A stretch of 61,998 nt of DNA, the filler included, from Hausera hauseri (Eukaryota), in the NCBI GenBank assembly GCA_046269625.1. It is 11 parts of 11 records of this genome, joined end to end, with 100 filler letters (N's around TTAATTAATTAA, not from the genome) between each part and the next. Parts side by side here need not be neighbours in the genome. Positions count along the whole stretch, not along the records: positions 15,040 to 21,266 come from JBJURY010122651.1; 10 more parts are not named here. One strand, 5' to 3'. This document shows positions 1 to 27,170 of this stretch, one piece after another. How positions within the stretch are numbered: position 1 is the stretch's first letter; every line of letters starts with the position of its first letter. The translations under genes and the position numbers were made by a program. The notes beneath the pieces are model-generated. The model searched no databases. It was not told where the DNA came from and was given only the letters and a program-made list of their open reading frames with translations.

Positions 1-256
1 GGGAAGAATATAATACCCGATTTTGCAAAGATTGCTTCATGCGAAACAATGGAGTGGGTGTTATATACTTGAGGCCACGTTCTACGTCAAGAATCATGCT
101 GATGGACATAAGAAGATATTTTATATTACATTTCCAGAATTACGAATATGTGCACATGAATATGGCAAATTGGTATCCATACCATTGAACATAACATGTA
201 TTTATCGTGAACATGGTTCACATTGTGCTTATAAAAAGCGTTTAGCGTTATGTTAA
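1..256 (+). CDS. 3' part of an unknown gene convergent with pPolB, belonging to the element
   Basis: Open frame ending ...CIYREHGSHCAYKKRLALC* with AATAAA at about 273. Copy 2 has the homologue at 21201-21266 (minus strand, HGLHCAYKKCLALCQSYVAAK*), so the stop at 254-256 is probably a CAA>TAA mutation. Confidence 0.5.
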
Positions 257-424
257 AGTTATGTTGTTGCAAAATAAATGTGTTATGAAATTAATTTGTC
301 TTATCCTGCATAGTATTTACTTAGTTTTACTTGGCCTTATCCTATATCTCACATTACTTGATCAAGAAGACAATGAGATATTTTTATAAATTTTATTATT
401 ACAAAAAATACAACGCAAAGATAT

Positions 425-2975
425 TTACATTAATGCAACATTCCCGTAAGCTAGTGTGCTTATTCCATCACAGAAGATCTATCTTTTGCCATCCATCCAA
501 CCTAGGCTCTTCTTTTTTAATGTTACTGTATCAATGTTATGAGCCCTAGACTGGATCCTTTGCATCTCTGATATGATATACATCTGCTCATGCAGAACTC
601 TCACATAGTCATTAAAGCCAATCTTCTTGGCTAAGTTCGCCCTTTGAACCACTTTAGTCCGCTTCTTTACTTGGCCACATACATTAAGGGCATATATTTT
701 GGACCTTAGAGCCCCAAATCCCAAGATGATTGCCCCATTCACTACGTCTTTGAATTTCCCAAGGAACGTTTTGTTGATAATTCAATAGTTGGAATGCTCC
801 TTAGGACAGTCAGATGTATCCATATGCTGAGCCAACTTAGCAAAGTCTCCATAGACGTTCTCCGTAAGGATCTGATAGATGAAGCTATCAGTATCCGTGT
901 ACATCAGCTGTATGGACTTGAATGTTGGGACCATGATATTATAGTTGAATTTGTACATCAGGGATTTTGACAGATCTAGTCTCGCTATACACACATACAT
1001 TGGCGTGTTAAACTCAAGCGACGTTTTTACCATATGGATGCTGACCGATTTCTCCGCGTATACGGAGATGCTGTAGAAGTTCGGCCTAGCAATGAGATTC
1101 TTTGCCCGCTTCCACTCACAGACCAACTCGGCGTTAATCTTATTGCGGATATTCTCCATGGTCTTGCCAAAAACACTGTTTGTTGTAAAGCTTGAACTGG
1201 TCTTTTTCAAAGTCGTTCTTGGCATTTGTCCGCAGCTCCGTATTGAGATCTAAGTAGAACAGCAGCCAGTTTGACAGGCTGAACTGCAGGACCCGATGGA
1301 TCTTAGTAATGCGGAGTCCATTCCTGACAGCTTACTGGAGATTTATGTAGCGGACTACATAGTCTCCCTACTATCCAGATGACAAAGCAGCTTTCTATGC
1401 TTTCCATATGGCGCAAGCTTGCTCTTAGGGAGGAAAGGCAGCTGTTGATACTTTGTGTGGATAGAATCCGGATATTCCATATTCACCTCCAGTATGTATG
1501 CCGTATCTTCAGTGGAATTCAGGTCCAGTATAGGGATGTATTCAGGATGCTCGACCAACTTGATGTTATCATATGACAATGGGGGCTCATTGCCTATCCA
1601 CGTAGGATGTTGGCATCCAGATATGATATATATGAGGATTCCTTGGATGGATTATACTGGGCTATATACTTGTTGGCCTCGTTATACCGGTGGATGGCCT
1701 GGCATATTCCACCTCTAATGCATCTCTCGATCGTGAGGATCATGTCGTAATCCTTTATGATCTTCAGCCTGACACCTGTATACCTCCGCATAGCTGCCCA
1801 GCTCATCCATAGAGCCGTAAAAAAATGAGCCGGATCCAGTTCATGACTGTTTATCGTAACATCCCTGAAACTATCAAAGACATCAGTAAGCAACAACACG
1901 TCCGTCTTGAGGTACATATCTCTGCATTCTCCTAATGTTCGGCATTGCAATGCATGCCAGACAATTTGAGCATGATGATAGTCCATATCACTGATATCAC
2001 AATGAGTGAAGATATTGTAAAAGTCCTTCTTGGCCGGCAATGAGGTCTCATACAATGTTTCCCATGATGTTATATAGTGATAGGGAAGCACGCCTTTCCT
2101 CTTGACGAGGACAAATGTAGTAGGGAAGAACTGTTTCGTCTCCTTGAGCCTCTTCATCAGTTCACTAAACTGTCAAGTGAAGACGACATGAAACGGAAAT
2201 TGTTTACGAAGCGAAGCCTGTTTTCCCAACATGCTTCGTAAAGGTGATGCATTTTTCCTCACTATTATGGATTACATCAATGTTTCCTTCAATGCTGCCC
2301 AGTTCCCGAACAATGAAATGGGAATTATAGCCACTGAGACTATGGAACATTACATGCACATATGTACATTTTTTGAAACGTAGATTGAAATTGTTGCATG
2401 CTGTGCCCCTATATGTACCTGTAAAATGGCAATGATTCCTAACTTTATAATTCTCCTTAGTAAATGATTTGGAGTACAAGTAACATGCTGTTGCCTTGCT
2501 GCATTCTTTAACTTGCTTCTTCGACATGTTCATTGTATTCTTATGCTGCTGCTGCATATCTCTAATCCTATGAGCCATATTTTCAAGTCATTTCATAAAA
2601 TGAACTGCTGCGCCTGGACCACTGAATAGATATGGTTCACTGTCCAGTGCTTTGGCACACATGCAATATGATGAGAGCTCATGATATTGGTATGCTGTTG
2701 TGCTGCTATGTTGGGGATTAAGATTGCAACTCTGAACTTGAAGCAGAATAGCCTCCAAGTCGCAATAAATAACTATTGGGACCTTGATCTTCTCCTCGAA
2801 CTCCTTAAATTCGATGCAGTTCTCCTTGGGAAATTCTATCCTGAAGAATTCCCTCTGTCTCGTCCTTTGTGTTTAAGAGGAAGACTTGGAGGGCATTTCT
2901 CTTTAATGCTGTCGCATCAACTGGCTGCTGTCTTTGACTTTTTGATGGACATCTGCTGCTGCTGCTGATATGCGT
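425..2975 (-). pseudogene. Protein-primed family B DNA polymerase, frameshifted and missing about 0.8 kb of N-terminal coding sequence
   Basis: EndoVII-like insert (VRNHCHFTGTYRGTACN), ExoII FHSLSGYNSHFI, ExoIII YLKTDVLLL, motif A YLDAN, motif [11 protein letters not shown] and motif C YTDTDS, spread over several frames. Confidence 0.92.
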
Positions 2976-3085
2976 TTTAGTCCTGCATCGGGCTTTGCTG
3001 CCAAAGCAGGCTATACAACTGGCTGTGCTGTCGAAGCAGTCTGTGCTGCTAAAGCAGAATGTTGCTCATTAAATATGACTTTCTT

Positions 3086-3544
3086 TTACTTTGACTTAAA
3101 GTCTATCAAATGAGCAATATGATCTTCGTAAAACGGCATGTATTCTCCATTACATACAGCCTCACTTCCTTGGCAAATATAATAGAGGATCCTATTGAAT
3201 TTGTATCCATAATAGGTCCTCATGGTATTATGACAGTTCTGAGGGTTGTGTATTGCACATATACAAAACACATATGAACTGCATCTTTGATTTTGCTTAG
3301 ACATGGAAGTCATTATTTGCATAGTGGTATTGAATATTTGTTTTTTCGACTTGGTGAAGGAAATCAGGTGTTGTTTATGGGCATTGTAAAAGTCTTCATA
3401 TTTGGTCTGGCACACTACCTCACATGTAGGGCATATATAATACTCAGCCCTGCTGTATAGATGGTTGAAGTATTTCTGCATAGTATTGTGGCAATTTTCA
3501 GGCTCGTGGATTTGAGCCAAGCACTGTTTGTATAGATTGCACAT
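3086..3544 (-). CDS. 152-aa protein with two tandem Cys/His-rich (putative Zn-binding) domains
   Basis: Internal repeat C-x2-Y-x2-C-x3-IH-x-P-x-NCHNTM...YYIC-x2-[CS]E-x-VC...FY-x2-H-x2-HL occurs twice. A homologue lies at 17153-17610. Confidence 0.8.
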   Translation of the reverse strand: MCNLYKQCLAQIHEPENCHNTMQKYFNHLYSRAEYYICPTCEVVCQTKYEDFYNAHKQHLISFTKSKKQIFNTTMQIMTSMSKQNQRCSSYVFCICAIHNPQNCHNTMRTYYGYKFNRILYYICQGSEAVCNGEYMPFYEDHIAHLIDFKSK

Positions 3545-4469: not shown

Positions 4470-4910
4470 ATGGGAAGTCTGCACCAGTTGCACTTTGGAT
4501 CGATATTATTCGAAATCCACTCGATCGATCTAAATTCTAATTGCACATTCACATAGTGCACCGTACTTCCAATCGATTGCCCTCTGTGCCATGTGCTAAT
4601 CATCAATATTGGACCTATCGGAAAACCGGTATTATTGATTTTTGCACACTTTCACATGTGCTGCACACCTACACAATGAATATAAAAATGCGAACTGATG
4701 TGTACTATCGATTAGCACTTTGGCCCGATCGATTCGATCAATTGTGCAATGTGCAGTCATCGATTTGTGAAATGTGCCTAACAACGGTTCCTAACTGCAC
4801 CGTAGCCTAGTACATTACCGATCGATAGTGCTTCACATGCATTATCGATTGGCACGTGTTATATTGATTTTATTGATTAGCATACCCGGTGGGTGGTGCA
4901 GACTTCCCAT
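4470..4910. repeat. Perfect 17-bp subterminal inverted repeat (arms 4470-4486 and 4894-4910)
   Basis: ATGGGAAGTCTGCACCA and TGGTGCAGACTTCCCAT are exact reverse complements. Confidence 0.95.
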
Positions 4911-4972
4911 TTTTCCCCTACATTTCTGGCCAACTATTACAGTAACTATTGCAGCGTCGTTGCTTCAGGCTT

Positions 4973-15039: not shown

Positions 15040-15785
15040 ACGGCGCCTTATCAACATCAGGCAAACGGCCTGGCAGAAAGAACGATACGGACAATAAGAG
15101 ACATGATTGCTACGACCTTGAAAACAGACGAGGAGAAATCAAGCTGGGACACCATAATCACGAGAATAGAGTTCGCCATAAATACAACTTGGCAGGCAAC
15201 AATCGGAATGAGCCCCTTTGAAGTAGTGTTAGGAAAGAAACTGTCTTTGCATGGATTGCATCAAGATGCGGGAGTCCAAAACAATCCGACAGTGGAACAG
15301 AATAGTAAAAAGGCAGCCGAAAGATTACTACTATTGGAAGATCAAAAGCGCGAACATCGAATGTTTCAAGTGAGGGAAGAGGTATTAGTAAAAAAAGACC
15401 CACACAAAAGAAAGAAAGATGGGGATAGATACCAAGGACCATGCCGAATAGTTCAATTCCTTACTCCACATCAGGCGGTACTACAATTTCCGAAGAGACT
15501 GAAACCCAGGCAAATCGAGTGGTTGAAAACAGTGACGTCAAACAACAAAACGGAGAGAGGGAAGTTAGAAAATGTGATAATTTGTTTAAATAATGTCAAT
15601 GTTATATTTGATATATAATTTGATATGGAATCTTCTAGTTCTCTTACTTATATATTTAAGAAAAGCGAATGAAAATATGCTTCTTGTATTCCTTCGTTAT
15701 AACGACCAATTTTTCAGTAATATTCGATTTCAAGTATACTGTAGTTCTGTCAAACTAAGAAAATCATTTATAATCGTTTGGAGTA
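15040..15785 (+). mobile_element. Gypsy integrase C-terminus, polypurine tract and probable start of the 3' LTR, interrupted by the pPolB element
   Basis: APYQHQANGLAERTIRTIR, WDTIITRIEFAIN, GMSPFEVVLG and RYQGP; purine run GGAGAGAGGGAAG at about 15552-15564. Confidence 0.85.
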
Positions 15786-15792
15786 AGGGAAA

Positions 15793-16198
15793 ATGCGGGT
15801 TCTCTCTCACCCCCGATTGAGTCGCACAGTGCAAAATCAATAGTGCACATGTGCTAATCGATAGTACACATGGAACACTATCGATCGGTAATGTGCTAGG
15901 CACATTTATGCACTTTTCACAATTGATCGCTGGACGGTGCAGTATTGGTCGGAATCGATTTGTATAAAGTGCTAATCGATAGAGCACATCGAGGCGCATC
16001 GATAAGTGCACAGTGCAAGTGTGCAAAAATCAATAATATCGGATTTCCCATAATTCCAATATTAATGATTAGCACATTTAAAGAGCGCAGTTCAAACGAG
16101 TTTTTGATTGGCTACAACACTGTGCGCTTAGAATTTAAATCGATCGAATAGTTTTTGAATAGCATGCGTGCCAAGTTCAACTGAGGGAGAACCCGCAT
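15793..16198. repeat. 17-bp subterminal inverted repeat (arms 15793-15809 and 16182-16198)
   Basis: ATGCGGGTTCTCTCTCA pairs with TGAGGGAGAACCCGCAT: 16 Watson-Crick pairs and 1 G-T pair. Confidence 0.93.
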
Positions 16199-16527
16199 AC
16201 GTTTTTTAGGCCCTAAGGAAGCAAAATTCGACAAATGTTTAAACGGGAACAGATAGAAAGTACCACATTGTAACCCGAGTGTTCCATCTCAGATTTCCGA
16301 AATTCGGTGTACAACTCGAATAAATATCGATTTCCACCGAATAGTATCGAATATCTTGACACCCATAAATTTTTTGAGAAATCTGAAAGCGCCAGTCGAT
16401 TTCCCATGTCTTAGTGCATCTATATAGCACTTTGCAGATATGTTATACATGTGCAAGTGCGCTTTAATCAATAATAACTGTTTTCCGATAAAACCCTTGA
16501 AGTTAACTTTAGCACATAAGCAAGTGG

Positions 16528-16738
16528 AAATCGAAAAATGTAAAAGCGTACACACATAGAAACTAAAATGTGCTGTATCCGATTATGACGTCAGATATTC
16601 GAAAACCCGAATACAAGTCGAACTTTTCGAAAAATTGATTTTCTGTTCGAATAGAAGCAAAAATCGAAAAATCTAAAAGCGTAGAGGGATAGAAATCCAT
16701 ATATGTAGAACATGAATATGACGTCAGATATTCGAAAA
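16528..16738 (+). repeat. Two imperfect direct repeats of about 77 bp, spaced about 133 bp apart
   Basis: AAATCGAAAAAT.TAAAAGCGTA...TATGACGTCAGATATTCGAAAA at about 16528-16605 and 16661-16738; counterparts in copy 1 at about 3935-4145. Confidence 0.8.
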
Positions 16739-17152
16739 GAGGCTTAAGTAAAAAAGATGATTTTTCGATCGAATTCGCATATTCGAATTGCGACATCGGA
16801 TTCCCCATGTTGGAAAACCTTTGCAGACCAAAAATTTGATGTGCAGTGTTTGGAACAGTCTTGAAATGATTAAAACATTGAAAAATTCGATAATATTCGG
16901 TCAAGCATGCATTATTGGAACAATCTGATCATTTCAATCGTTTGTATGAAAACCTATGGGCGCCCAAGTGCATTTAATTTATTTGATGCATTAAAACAAC
17001 GTGTTCTACAATGTGCGAAAATTCAAAATTTAAAAAATCCATAAATGAGGCAATATGCGTTGATATGGTTATATGTTTCATTATTTCCAAAATTACTTCC
17101 ACGAATGGTAAGATTTTTATTTCTGCACCTCAAATAATTGATTGATTTTTAG

Positions 17153-17610
17153 ATGTACAATCTATATAAACAGTGCTTGGCTCAAATCGAAAAGCCTGAA
17201 AATTGCCACAACATTATGCAGAAATACTTCAGCCATCTATACAACAGGGCTGAATATTATGTATGTCCTACATATGAGGTAGTGTGCCAGACCAAATATG
17301 AAGACTTTTACAATGCCCATAAACAACAACTGATTTTCTTACCAAGTCGAAAAAACAAATATTCAATACCAATGTGCCAATAATGACTTCAATGCCTAAG
17401 CAAAATCAAAGATGCAGTTCATACTTGTATTGCACATGTGCAATACACAACCCTCAGAACTGTCATAGTACCATGAGGGGCTATTATGGATTCAAATTCA
17501 ATAGGATCCTCTATTATATTTCCTCAGGATGTGAGGCTGTATGTGATGGAGAATACATGCAGTTTTACGAAGAATATATTGCCCATTTGATAGACTTCAA
17601 GTCAAAGTGA
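17153..17610 (+). pseudogene. Tandem Cys/His-domain protein split by a frameshift (orthologous to 3086-3544)
   Basis: ORFs 17153-17383 and 17374-17610 together match the 152-aa copy-1 ORF. A possible 45-nt GTAAG..TTTTAG intron lies at 17108-17152, immediately upstream. Confidence 0.82.
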
Positions 17611-17635
17611 AAGAAGGTCATATTTAATGAGAAGC

Positions 17636-17695
17636 AGCCTGCTTTGGCAGCACAACCTGCTTTGGCAGCACAAACTGCTTTGGCAGCAAGGCCTG
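17636..17695 (+). repeat. 18-bp tandem repeat, three units (translates as QPALAA)
   Basis: CAGCCTGCTTTGGCAGCA / CAACCTGCTTTGGCAGCA / CAAACTGCTTTGGCAGCA; a related array is in copy 1 at about 2990-3060. Confidence 0.85.
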
Positions 17696-17708
17696 ACGCA
17701 AGACTAAA

Positions 17709-20700
17709 ATGTATATCAGAAGTAGCAGTAGATGCTCCATAAAAAGCCAAAGACAGCGGCCAGTTGATGCAGCAGCATTAAAGAGAAAATGCCGCAGATA
17801 TGTTATTGATGCAACTGGCCAATCAATCTTCAAAGATTTCCTCTTATACACAAAGGACTAGACAGGGGGAATTCTCCAGGACAACATGTCGAAGTTGAAG
17901 GTCCTTAAGGTGAACTTCAAATTAGAAGCCACCTCCACCAATATCGAAGAAGAGCTGTCTAGTAGAGCCTATAAGACAAAGAACAAGCCACTATTGAAAT
18001 TCTCTAACATTAAGGATTTCATTACAAAGAACTATGCAAGGCTTATGCGCGAAGCCGAAGAAAGCTAGGACAAGAAGAGTGGTTGGACTTTAGCAACAAT
18101 AAGGGGGTTACTTGTGCATGTGCACAAGTATTCTCCCATGAGAGGCAGCTCTTACTTACCGCTTCCTGAATGGATATTTAAGAAAAAAGCATGCATCAAT
18201 GTCCATAATGAGGACAACATGTGTTTTATATATGCTATTTTCTCAAAACTTGTTCAGGATTAACATAATGCTTTCCGAGTTTGAATATATGACAAAGTGC
18301 AGCACACATACGACTTCAGCTGCATTTCATTCCCGCGGAGCTTAGATGAAGTCGCAAAACTTGAAAGCGTGAACAACATCTCAATCAACATCTTCGGATT
18401 GGAGGAGAACAAACTTTACCCCTTACATGTGTGCAAGGAGGAATTTGAGAATCATAGGGATCTGCTCCTGTCAGATGATGGAGAAATGAGGCATTTCATG
18501 TGGATTATAATCTTTGAGCGCCTTGTAGGATCACAAATATCGAAGCATAAGTCAAGGCTGGAAATCTGCAAACGATGTCTATCCCATTTCAGTGGTGACA
18601 TGGCCTCGGCGAAGCTTGAGAATCATAAGACGTATTGCAATACAAACTATTGCATCCGAGCAGAATTCCACAAGGAGTATTACCTGGAATTCAAAGAGTT
18701 TGAAAAGATGTTGAAGGTGCCGATTGTCATATATTGTGACTTTGACACCATCCTCAGCCCAGTTCACAGCTGCACTCAGAATCCGCAGCAAAGCAGCACG
18801 GCAGCTTACCAATATTATGAGCTCTTATCATACTGCATGTATGCATTAGGAATGGACAAGAGGCCATTCCTATACTGGGGTTCAGATGCAGCGCTTCATT
18901 TCATGAAGCGCTTGGAGGAAATTACACATAAAATCGAAAATATGAAGCAGCAATGTAAGAATACTATGAAAATATCTTAAAAGGAAAAGTGTGAATTGCA
19001 AAATGCAATACAGTGTTACTTGTGTGAAAAAGCCTTCACATTAGACAGTCACAAAGTCCGAAATCATCGCCATACAATAGGCATGTATCGAGGCGCAGCG
19101 TGCAATAATTGCAACTTACGCTAAAAAACATGCACTTATGTTCCCATGGTATTCTACAACCTCAGCGTGTGTGATTTCCATTTCATAGTTCGGGAATTTG
19201 GTGCTATTGAAGGAAACATCAATGTGATTCCAAACAGTAAGGAGAAATATGTCACATTCATGAAGCACGTGGGCAGAATCCGCCTTCGTTTCATAGACAT
19301 TTTCCGACTCATGAGCTCATCCCTTGACAGCCTGGTCAAGAATCTTCCAGCTGATGAGCTCAAGGAAACGAAGCGGTTCTTCCCGGCAACATTTGATTTA
19401 GTCAAAAAGAAAGGAGTATTCCTCTATGACTACATAACGTCATGGAGATCTCTTGAAGAAAGAGAATTGCCTGCTAAGAAGGATTTTTACAGTAGGCTTT
19501 CAGACACGGACATCAGCGATGCGGACTATAAGCATGCTCAAAATATCTGGAAAGCATTCAAATGTAGGAAAATAAGGAAATATGGTGACATCTATCTCAT
19601 CACAGATGTGCTGCTGCTAACGAATGTATTTGAAAGCTTCCGGGATGTCACACTTAAGAGTCACAAATTGGATCCAGCTCATTTTTTCACAGCTTCAGGA
19701 ATGAGGTGGGCAGCAATGCTACGCTATACAGGCATATGGCTGCAGATCTTGAAGGACTGTGATATGATCCTGATGATCGAGTGAGGCATTCAGGGCGGAA
19801 TCTGCCAGGCCATTCACAGATATAGTGAGGCAAACAATAAATACATGGCAGAATATGATACATCCAGGCCATCATTTTATATAACATACCCGGATGCAAA
19901 AAACTTATATGGTTGGGCAATGAGTGCCCCATTGCCCTATGATAATTTTAAATGGGTGGAGCATCCCGAAGAGCTCTCAATACAAAATATGGACCTTAAT
20001 GGAGATACGGGACACATGTTGGAAGTGGATGTAGAATATCCCCATAGCATCCACTCAAGGCATGAACAACTGCCTTTTCTCCCGGAGAGCAAGCAACCAC
20101 CAGATAGAAAACGCAAGAAGTGGCTTTGCCATTTGGATGATCGGAAATATTATGTAGCCCACTATATAAATCTCCAGCTGGCTATGAGGAATGGTGTAAG
20201 AGTAACAAGGATCCATCGTGCCATATCATTTAACCAGTCTATGTGGTTGCAGCCCTACATAGACTTCAACATGCAGCTGAGGGTTAATGCCAAAAATGAC
20301 TTTGAAAACGACCAATTCAAGTTGTATAACAACTTGGTCTTTGCAAAACGATGGAGAATATCCGCAATAGTATAAATATCGAGTTGGTGTGTGACTGGAA
20401 GCGGGCAAAGAAGCTCATTGTCAAGCCCAACTTACATTCCGGCACAATATATACAGAAAACCTGGTAAGCATACATGTGCTCAAGACATCCCTGGAATTT
20501 AACAAGCCGGTCTATGTCGGAATGTCAATCTTGGACTTGTCAAAGACCCTGATGTATGATTTGATTACATCATGGTCCCCACATTCAAGTCAATACAGCT
20601 GATGTATATGGATACTGATAGCTTCATCTATTAGATCCATACAGAGGACATTTATGAGGACTTTGCAAAGTTGGTTCAGCATATGGATACGTCTGATTAT

Positions 20701-21081
20701 CCAAAGGATCATCCCAACTATTCAATTACCAACAAAAAGATCCTTGGGAAATTCAAAGACGAGGTGAATGGGACAATCATCTCGCGATTTGTGGCTCTTA
20801 AGTTTACAATGTATGCCATTGATGAATGTGGTCAAGTAAAGAAGCGAGCTAAAATTGTTCAATAGGCAACCATAGCCAAGAAGATTGGCTTCAATGACTA
20901 TGTTAGAGTTCTGCATGAGCAGACTTATATCATATCAGAGATGCAAAGGATCCAGAACAGGACTAATACCATGGAGAGAGTAACATTATAGAAGAAAAGT
21001 CTAGATAGGATGGATGACAAAAGACAGATCCCGGGTGATGGAATAAGCACACTACCTCACGGACATGTTACATTAATGTAA
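17709..21081 (+). pseudogene. Protein-primed family B DNA polymerase, near full length with several stops and frameshifts
   Basis: RGSSYLPLPEWIFKKKACINVHNEDNMCF; C2H2-like CKRCLSHF..H..YC; ExoI YCDFD; EndoVII-like insert; ExoII and ExoIII; motif A DAKNLYG, motif B KLYNN.VF, motif C YMDTDS; DDKR; ends TLPHGHVTLM*. The start position is uncertain. Confidence 0.94.
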
Positions 21082-21366
21082 ATATCTTTGTTATGACGTG
21101 TTGTATTTTTGTATTAATAAAACTTATAAAAAATATCGTGTTGACTTCTTGATCAAGTAATGTGGGATATGGGATAAGGCCAACTAATTTTATAACACAT
21201 TTATTTCGCAGCAACATAACTTTGACATAACGCTAAACACTTTTTATAAGCACAATGTAAACCATGNNNNNNNNNNNNNNNNNNNNNNNNNNNNNNNNNN
21301 NNNNNNNNNNTTAATTAATTAANNNNNNNNNNNNNNNNNNNNNNNNNNNNNNNNNNNNNNNNNNNN

Positions 21367-25117: not shown

Positions 25118-27170
25118 ATGACTGATGATGTTGATCTTCTGCAGAGGGCTGCTGATCGAATTCGTATTTTGAGTATAAAATCAACAAATGTTTGCAATTC
25201 CGGGTAGAAATCTTTGTCAAATGAAATAATTTGTGATGTTTGTTCGTTTGTTTGTTCAGTCATCCTACTTCTTGTGCATCAATGGCGGAAGCCATATCGG
25301 TTTTGTTTTTCAATGTGATGCGTTATCACGTTGATGATCCACATAATCCGAATAACGATCGATTTGTGTTGTCAAAGGTATTTTTGTGTCTGTCTGTTTT
25401 GGTTTGTGGTGATTAATTGAAATTTCATGAAGGGTCATGCAGCGCCTGGTCTTTATGCAGCTTGGGTCGTTGCTGGGCTGGTGAAGGAGGAAGATTTGAT
25501 GAAATTGAGGAAAATTGACAGTGATTTGGAGGGTCATCCGACTCCTGTTGGTTTTCCTTATTTGTGATTTTTTGGATAAAATTCCGAATCATTAATTAAC
25601 TAATTATCCATAGAGACTGCCATTTATCGATGTTGCTACTGGATCATTGGGTCAAGGACTGAGTTGTGCAGCTGGAATGGCATACACGGGCAAATATTTC
25701 GAGGAAGCCGATTATCGCGTATATTGTCTCATCGGTGACGGCGAATCGGCCGAAGGATCAATTTGGGAGGCGATGTCATTCAGCGGTTATTACAAATTGG
25801 ACAATTTAGTGGCCATCTTTGACATCAATCGATTGGGACAGAGTCAACCGACGATGTTTCAACACGATTTGGACATTTACCGGAACAGAGCAGAGTCTTT
25901 CGGATGGCATGCCATTATTGTTGACGGACATGACGTACGGCAACTCATTGCAGCATTTGAAGAGGCAGCCAATCACAAAGAAAAACCGACAGCACTTATT
26001 TTGCGCACGATGAAAGGCGCAGGAATGAAGGGAATTGAAAATGAGGACAATTGGCACGGCAAGGCATTGGGGAATTATGCAAATGATGTCATTCGTGATC
26101 TGGAGGCGAGAATCAACGCAAATAAAGTCAGCGGTGCAGGTGACAGTGCGTTGGTGTCACGACGGCCCTCAGACGTGCTGAAGGCTGTGCCGGACATGCC
26201 AATCTGTCTACCAGACAAACCACAGTATAGATTGGGCGAGCAGGTGGCTACGAGATTGGCATACGGAATTGCATTGACGAAATTGGGTGCCAGCAGCAAC
26301 CGAGTCGTGGCAATGGACGGTGACACGAAAAATTCGACGTTTAGCATCAAATTCATGGAGAAATATCCGACAAGATTTATCGAATGTTTCATTGCCCAAC
26401 AAAATATGGTTGGTGTCGGCATCGGCTGTGCAACTCGTCGACGGACTGTGCCGTTCGTCAGTACGTATGGTGCCATCTTCTCTCGTGCATTCGATCAGTT
26501 GCGGATGGGTGTCATTTCACAGACGGACTGCAATTTCGTTGGGTCCCATGCAGGAATTAGCATTGGCGAGGATGGACCGAGTCAAATGGCGTTGGAGGAT
26601 CTCGCTTTGTTCCGATCGCTGCCAGGCGCAACTGTGTTCTACCCGACTGATGCCGTCTCAACGGAACGCGCTGTCGAATTGGCGGCGAATACGAGTGGCG
26701 TTTGTTACATTCGAACAGGTCGACCGAATGCTGCAGTGATTTACAGCGGTGACGAACAATTCGCCATTGGCCATGGGAAAATCTTACGACAGAGCGACAC
26801 TGACAAGGCGACGATCGTTGCTGCTGGCGTGACGTTGTATGAGGCGCTGAAGGCTGCCGATAAATTGCACAATGAGGGAGTGTCTGTGCGAATTGTGGAC
26901 GTATTTACCGTGAAACCGATTGACGGACAACTGCTGCGTGAATGCGCATTGGCAACGGGTGGCAACGTGGTCACTGTTGAGGATCATTACGCTGATGGGG
27001 GCATTGGCGATGCGGTAGCCAGTGCGTTGTCCATGGAGAGAAATGTCCGCGTCATGAAATTGGCTGTCAATAGCGTCCCGCGTAGTGGCAAACCAGAGGA
27101 ATTGTTGGCCATGTTCGGCATTGATGCGGATGCGATTGTGGCTGCCGTGCTTAAATTGGTGCGTTCATAA
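25118..27170 (+). CDS. TKT: Transketolase, metazoan type; exons 25118-25203, 25260-25377, 25433-25546 and 25614-27170; 624 aa
   Basis: Three GT-AG introns (56, 55 and 67 nt) restore SGHPTSC, LSKGHAAP and LEGHPTPRLPF. Also [41 protein letters not shown] and TVEDHY. No stops in the spliced frame. Confidence 0.97.

Follow-up and report, generated by a model that had tools for sequence, protein, structure and literature searches.

A co-varying 17-bp stem closes the end block of a Polinton-like pPolB element in Hausera hauseri

The window analysed here is the whole 61,998-nucleotide stretch of Hausera hauseri DNA (GCA_046269625.1), made of 11 unlinked contigs of 4-8 kb joined by N spacers. The same element is present in two of these contigs in opposite orientation, copy 1 running from 4921 to 1 on the minus strand and copy 2 from 15783 to 21266 on the plus strand (Table 1). 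Similarity between the two begins at 4921 and 15783, respectively, and continues until the contig end is reached, 190-440 nt past a pPolB gene. Copy 2 is adjoined at 15040-15782 by an integrase-tail-like frame and a purine tract, by eye a probable LTR retrotransposon (no Pfam match was found there). The remaining contigs hold pieces of LTR retrotransposons and of host genes, and positions 25614-27170 contain an uninterrupted 518-codon transketolase frame of 52% GC, higher than the remainder, which could be a retrocopy, an intronless gene or a contaminant.

Table 1. Features of the two element copies, in positions of the window
Feature	Position	Strand	Basis or remark
Copy 2 tip, 10 nt outside outer arm	15783-15792	+	Onset of similarity to copy 1
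Copy 2 outer arm, 17 nt	15793-15809	+	Inverted match
Copy 2 loop, 372 nt, motif-rich	15810-16181	+	ATCGAT: 6/7 of the sites in the 1.37-kb non-coding end
Copy 2 inner arm, 17 nt	16182-16198	+	Inverted match; divergence change-point at or just inside the arm
Copy 2 remaining non-coding end	16199-17152	+	16438-16715 is an old paralog of 16000-16275
Copy 2 duplicated Cys/His-rich domain	17153-17610	+	Forms the pPolB N-terminus in relatives P0162 and P0174
Copy 2 decayed pPolB gene	17772-21075	+	Terminal-protein region near 17862-18150; HNH insert near 19050-19120
Copy 1 tip, 11 nt outside outer arm	4911-4921	-	Onset of similarity to copy 2
Copy 1 outer arm, 17 nt	4894-4910	-	Inverted match
Copy 1 loop, 407 nt	4487-4893	-	ATCGAT: 8/8 of the sites in the copy 1 non-coding end
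Copy 1 inner arm, 17 nt	4470-4486	-	Inverted match
Copy 1 Cys/His domain and decayed pPolB with Endonuclease_7 (HNH) insert	443-3544	-	No counterpart of copy 2 at about 17883-18660

The polymerase was recognised by matches to DNA_pol_B_2 (E 7e-7 and 5e-5) and by 732 homologs, the best at 53%. The named homologs come from a leafhopper and a mealybug, and the host is therefore probably an arthropod. Compared with P0001, the copy 2 gene carries 10 stops and 2 frame changes, and copy 1 is likewise broken by stops and frame changes. An Endonuclease_7 (HNH) match was obtained in copy 1 (E 0.0014, below the curated cut-off) and in P0001 (E 2.6e-5, above it). Judged by sequence, the gene encodes a pPolB that carries an inserted HNH domain and is of the pPolB2 type set out in the available text of 10.1101/2023.08.22.554363. 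Residues 142-254 of P0162 fold like the little-finger domain of a Y-family polymerase (Pol eta; Z 9.5, rmsd 3.1, 110 aligned), and a little-finger-like fold is given as the signature of the terminal protein in the accessible part of PMC11071308. The terminal-protein region of copy 2 matches P0162 (52% over 66 residues); in copy 1 this region is deleted. A TcdB_N match in the same region (E 0.002, below cut-off) was treated as chance, and Atlas look-ups returned scores that were all below 0.8.

Word-based protein searches with the Cys/His domain gave no match, and a full HMMER search found 33 relatives of it; the domain is fused to the pPolB N-terminus in P0162 and P0174. Members of this pPolB clade (P0154-P0186) carry one to three copies of the domain (C..H...C.....CP.C.....F...H..HL..F) as an N-terminal cap, and no Pfam family reached its cut-off in the five relatives scanned. 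Third-position bias was observed in 4 of 5 blocks of the polymerase core (0.46-0.52) and was absent from the Cys/His domain and the polymerase tail; thus, these low-divergence blocks have been recently shared, differing mostly by decay. The core itself (18600-20540 against 2870-950 of the window) is 22-36% diverged between copies, more than its flanks, and this block holds the HNH insert. Homing-type conversion or module swapping of the HNH-containing core block is possible. Remains of a Cys-rich frame, at 14-256 (+) and 21068-21232 (-), converge on the polymerase gene in both copies. Among pPolB records, P0018 carries an N-terminal double-jelly-roll fusion (PF21738), with 2 full-length members in its cluster.

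The traits used for Polintons/Mavericks were pPolB, a terminal-protein domain, HNH, the integrase, ATPase, capsid and protease genes, terminal inverted repeats (TIRs) of 100-1500 bp and a 5-8-bp target-site duplication (TSD). No integrase, ATPase, capsid or protease gene was found in the window, where both contigs stop shortly past pPolB, and no DDD/E transposase in the visible 5.5 kb of the element. As read from its pPolB end, the element works like a Polinton and is a candidate member, its integrase, TIR and TSD lying off the contigs.

The sequence-only reading had described two 17-nt arms per copy, about 370-410 nt apart and near the element end, perfectly paired in copy 1, the outer arms differing between copies at 8 of 17 positions. 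Each of these points was confirmed. The arms lie 10-11 nt inside the end, all 17 positions pair in copy 1, and copy 2 forms 16 Watson-Crick pairs and one G-T pair; 7 of the 8 differing pairs are changed on both sides, and the eighth, changed on one side, gives the G-T pair. By chance alone, all 7 inner-arm changes would fall opposite altered outer positions and re-establish pairing with a probability of about 1.9e-7, the seven counting as one comparison because just two full copies were compared. In 150 dinucleotide shuffles per 1-kb end, the best 17-nt inverted match did not exceed 15, against the 16 and 17 observed, and with the arm start fixed at 40 nt or less from the end, none of 400 shuffles per copy rose above 13 pairs. 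All four arms share 9 of the 17 positions and start with AT, inside the shared end, and 4 of the 7 double changes are transversions. Conservation of the arms does not exceed that of the loop (15/34 versus 114/369 differences; Fisher p 0.13). The converse idea, that the arms are hypervariable, was rejected on the same p value and on the finding that 38 of 1126 ungapped 17-nt windows have at least 7 differences.

Folding of the 0.4-kb end includes the stem on both strands and goes beyond shuffles (z -5.0 to -5.9). Four consensus folds were computed from two sequences each (copy 1 and copy 2): the 17-bp stem appears in all four with its 7 double changes, and other helices of at least 5 pairs carry 0-3. 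The RNA-parameter consensus fold retains the stem together with a few small helices with 1-3 double changes; no conserved hairpin was seen past the inner arm in the consensus folds. The single G-T pair of copy 2 may represent decay after insertion, because both copies are dead and copy 2 departs from the letter of run X1, which at 34 of the 40 best-supported of 436 variant sites is carried by copy 1 and not by copy 2. Among the 6 of 870 loose-end positions listed for run X1, one at 16161 (105 contigs, agreement 0.56) resembles the copy 1 inner arm over the first ten positions with one further difference; therefore, further arm types exist.

The block bracketed by the arms is 31-33% diverged between copies versus 13.6% just inside it. 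The change-point in the non-coding end was placed at 16224 (support 16196-16233), i.e. at the inner arm, and was reached in none of 300 permutations. Copy-copy divergence as a whole is a mosaic, with 24-39% over 15783-16202, 8-19% over 16203-17880, the polymerase core values mentioned above, and 10-17% after 20543. The coincidence of change-point and inner arm indicates that the arms bracket a module which is passed on or swapped as a whole, in the manner of a TIR. Positions 16000-16275 and 16438-16715 are paralogous on both sides of the inner arm (0/300 shuffles in each of 4 tests), the inner-arm slot being filled in the paralog with unrelated sequence. The inner arm thus lies within paralogous DNA of the element, which makes the block native and argues against a foreign MITE. 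This bears on the possibility, raised by the sequence-only reading, of an independent 0.4-kb MITE with its own TSDs: where tested, no target duplication was found beside the arms, copy-copy similarity runs on past both of them, and no second copy of the unit or of an arm was detected within the window. That reading had also stated that the arms are not a classical pair of TIRs, which is true of the two arms themselves and need not extend to the block that they bracket, probably the terminal inverted repeat of the element.

No match to the element end was found in window positions 1-480 or 21040-21266. A candidate 5'-AG terminus is present in copy 2 (AG at 15782-15783) and absent at the matching place in copy 1; Kapitonov and Jurka are said to have reported such a terminus for Polintons in 2006. 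Blastn against the loci then collected returned no DNA-level relative of the end, a gapped motif of the end had 0 matches, phages gave none, and 19 pattern matches in viral contigs were set down to chance. ATCGAT, which we take to resemble the insect DRE promoter element, clusters between the arms in both copies (Table 1). A 78-nt direct repeat (16528-16605 and 16661-16738), with a TGACGTCA motif, presumably CRE-like, at each unit in copy 2, forms part of the enhancer-like non-coding end. A sigma-70 promoter scan was discarded as irrelevant to an animal element.

Together, these results show a native, sub-terminal, co-varying stem that closes, as far as two aligned copies reveal, a distinct end module of the pPolB element: the block is a divergence unit of its own, and its 17-bp stem drifts in sequence with complementarity kept. 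We read this block of about 420-440 nt, which runs from the tip to slightly beyond the inner arm, as the end module of a Polinton-like element of pPolB2 (HNH) type, probably its TIR.

In run X1, 22,065 of 15.5 million contigs fall on 15600-17800, and the element therefore belongs to a highly repeated, diverse family. The depth of the bin at 15674-15747 (11.4) equals that of a single junction contig, no other contig reaching in, which fits an element end near 15783; further out, 15600-15673 is itself repeated in this run. Summed depth over some stretches of the non-coding end exceeded that over the first ORF; nothing is concluded from this, as contig depth cannot rank parts.

Related pPolB loci were surveyed for similar ends. 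An rve integrase and an A32 ATPase lie beside relatives 40-45% identical to P0001 (L001, L003, L025 and L037), with a double-jelly-roll gene too in L007 and L021. An inverted repeat of at least 14 bp with a 200-700-nt loop was sought upstream of related pPolB at 73 loci, in most of which the element end is not visible, and showed no enrichment (2/73 versus 4/73 coding controls). One of the two, in L028 (2581-3368), is a TTAA-flanked MITE of 788 bp upstream of the pPolB gene, with inverted arms that are long but imperfect. A 28-bp repeat in L091 was set aside for its overlap with coding-like sequence and a 17-bp AT-rich repeat in L067 as low-complexity. No such stem was found in the end examined of L007, the relative with clear long TIRs, nor seen in L001, L003, L020 and L022, which are nearer in the quick tree (weakly supported near the window copies) and whose element ends were not located. 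The multi-copy elements of G001 gave no clear TIR or end stem where examined, and scans with P0001, P0162 and alignment A2 yielded no confirmed loci. L059, a metagenome contig with a distantly related pPolB, opens with a hairpin of about 90 nt (1-90) that resembles a parvovirus end.

The one parallel came from L120 (G002, unpublished), which groups with the mealybug protein in the quick tree. Its 15-bp stem (194-208/576-590) encloses a loop of 367 nt and begins 22 nt in from a candidate terminus marked by AGTAGT at 172, which we take to be a Polinton-like tip. All 11 TGACCT motifs of the contig lie within this loop. At 648, ahead of the polymerase match, a frame opens that has a zinc-finger-like start. 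With the tip fixed, 13 pairs were never attained in 400 shuffles, and 15 were attained in 4 of 1073 real windows; the stem is treated as a lead because the tip was picked after the repeat was seen. Five matches to the L120 tip extend over 17-25 nt only and were dismissed.

The co-varying arms suggest a fold-back of the single-stranded end during copying of the element. Specifically, we propose a fold-back stem on single-stranded DNA displaced in protein-primed replication, with one arm re-copied from the other, and hold this reading to be about evenly balanced between right and wrong. Protein-primed strand-displacement synthesis would leave the element end single-stranded; the arms would then snap together, setting a 10-11-nt terminal tail beside a short duplex, i.e. 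a local panhandle that could act as an origin or as an end-repair template, the tail being the place of priming or end repair. If the fold-back were trimmed and refilled, the inner arm would act as template for a new outer arm. Re-copying in this folded state, more than gradual compensation step by step, would be what mainly keeps the arms matched. Stepwise compensation generally slows change and favours transitions via wobble pairs. The four transversions, which have no G-T wobble route, and arms not conserved above the loop thus favour arm copying, seven events being few. The terminal-protein domain of the family supports the protein-primed reading of the end; against that reading, a stem of 17 bp has to hold its own against other folds when it closes 400 nt. 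The available portion of PMC4061559 records a proposal, citing Kapitonov and Jurka 2006, that Polintons replicate via a single-stranded, panhandle-forming intermediate. The sequence-only reading had left a choice between a panhandle and a binding site: the base-paired panhandle is supported, in that the stem forms in the folds of either strand and no other helix has many double changes, and a binding site alone leaves the matched variable positions unexplained.

Four other explanations were weighed against fold-back copying. The stem might act in RNA, a transcript from the tip folding the 0.4-kb block as a leader, small non-coding RNA or double-stranded RNA signal under ordinary compensatory selection. 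The block does fold well beyond shuffles and the RNA-parameter consensus keeps the stem and its small helices, but no Rfam match was found in the window, both strands fold equally well, and the transversions among the double changes sit poorly with this route. Moreover, the outer arm lies 10 nt from the end, upstream of the ATCGAT cluster, to which we assign a promoter-like role, and an element-driven mRNA would therefore probably lack it; we regard this explanation as unlikely. Improbable to a like degree is the view of the arms as recombination or hairpin-transfer sites, at which the segment is inverted (flip/flop) or cassette-swapped as at parvovirus hairpins, perhaps after HNH nicking, with mismatch correction equalising the arms. 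The block behaves like a unit open to exchange and bordered by the inner arm; this, the HNH domain in pPolB and the opening hairpin of L059 would all suit such a view. Yet the loop has the same orientation in copy 1 and copy 2, no strand change occurs among the 15 of 57 joints listed for run X1 (whose contigs drop rare forms), and the arms start 10-11 nt inside the end, not at it.

The arms could also be inner and outer binding sites for the integrase, the terminal protein or the HNH domain, subfamily-specific and gene-converted, their pairing being without function. The positions common to four arms are as expected of such sites, and the end block and the pPolB core are both about 30% diverged with the DNA between at 8-19%, as if end type tracked polymerase type. 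Binding would not, however, require the eight variable positions to match between arms, and a copying step would still be needed; moreover, it is usually the transposase sites that are best conserved within an element end, whereas here the arms are not conserved above the loop. Helentron subTIRs, for comparison, are near-identical between families less than 70% identical in the accessible text of PMC4067079. We consider sites of this kind a poor prospect. Least credible, and very unlikely in our estimate, is that the 0.4-kb unit is a separate mobile piece (a MITE, a Helentron-type HINE or a KolobokP-like long repeat with its own short TIRs) represented by differing subfamilies at the element end. 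Its size and short inverted ends fit such classes as portrayed in the available parts of PMC4067079 and PMC9587614, it is more diverged than neighbouring DNA, and a genuine MITE does sit upstream of pPolB in L028. Against this stand the missing target duplication, similarity that extends 10-11 nt past the outer arm, an inner arm placed in DNA paralogous to the element's downstream region, and the lack of any other unit or arm copy in the window; in addition, a passive insertion would not co-vary once inserted.

The stem is therefore taken as real and, on present evidence, not a MITE, a position that rests on two copies and one unconfirmed parallel, L120. Polinton replication has so far been inferred from gene content, with a single-stranded intermediate only proposed; the co-varying arms would be sequence evidence that such an end base-pairs as a single strand, and the defined 10-11-nt tail and 17-bp stem make this testable. 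The family is highly repeated, so that a many-copy test of the arms needs only a good assembly. If the structure were general, it would offer a way to find and type the ends of such elements. A broader conjecture, which we think rather unlikely, is an arthropod Polinton-like HNH-pPolB group with an undescribed kind of end: self-closing terminal repeats in which fold-back synthesis rewrites the outer arm from the inner one, perhaps accompanied by HNH nicking and by flip/flop or cassette exchange. If true, such elements would combine protein priming with hairpin-type end replication, and the arm would be a free-drifting subfamily tag on the origin.

Several known systems resemble the copies in part. 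KolobokP, in the sections available of PMC9587614, likewise has a 450-660-bp terminal block with its own 11-18-bp inverted ends and encodes a His-Me finger nuclease; it differs in its DDD/E transposase, its TIRs at the very ends with 5'-RR, its TSDs and its solo copies, whereas the copies carry a pPolB gene and sub-terminal arms starting with AT, with no TSD beside them. Helentrons/HINEs and DINE-1 (PMC4067079, in its accessible part) share short, family-variable inverted repeats a few bases inside the end, and high copy number. Helentron subTIRs, however, are conserved, 12-15 bp long and set 2-4 nt in from a 5' end flanked by T; a 3' stem-loop and the end of the element come 38-60 bp after the second subTIR (same source); the arms of the copies are 17 bp, 10-11 nt inside and after G and A runs, homology runs more than 5 kb further, and no Rep/helicase was seen there. 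Bidnaviruses, according to the portion of PMC4061559 available, also have a Polinton-derived pPolB, and are insect elements with long TIRs and a single-stranded stage; unlike them, the copies have an HNH insert in the polymerase, and no parvovirus-type capsid or SF3 helicase was identified here.

Close in gene content are Polintons/Mavericks with pPolB2, which in the available text of 10.1101/2023.08.22.554363 and PMC11071308 share the HNH-insert pPolB, an N-terminal terminal-protein-like domain and a long non-coding end by the pPolB 5' end, and whose TIRs are typically 100-1500 bp. The copies differ by the internal co-varying stem in their end; no such stem in Polinton ends was described in the full-text literature covered, which leaves out most subscription papers, Repbase entries and supplements, where TIR sequences could hold such stems. 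A parallel in operation is offered by the telomeres of Streptomyces (PMC4513846, in the part available), also a protein-primed linear replicon, where a single-stranded end of about 300 nt folds back, as proposed for the copies; there, the terminal 13-nt palindrome I pairs with the inner palindrome IV, and the fold-back is able to prime fill-in in vitro. Streptomyces telomeres differ in being bacterial, in their short conserved palindromes packed from the last base, and in using an internal origin with end patching. The copies have instead one 17-bp stem across 400 nt, which begins 10-11 nt inside and whose sequence drifts, and the likeness would thus be one of working principle only.
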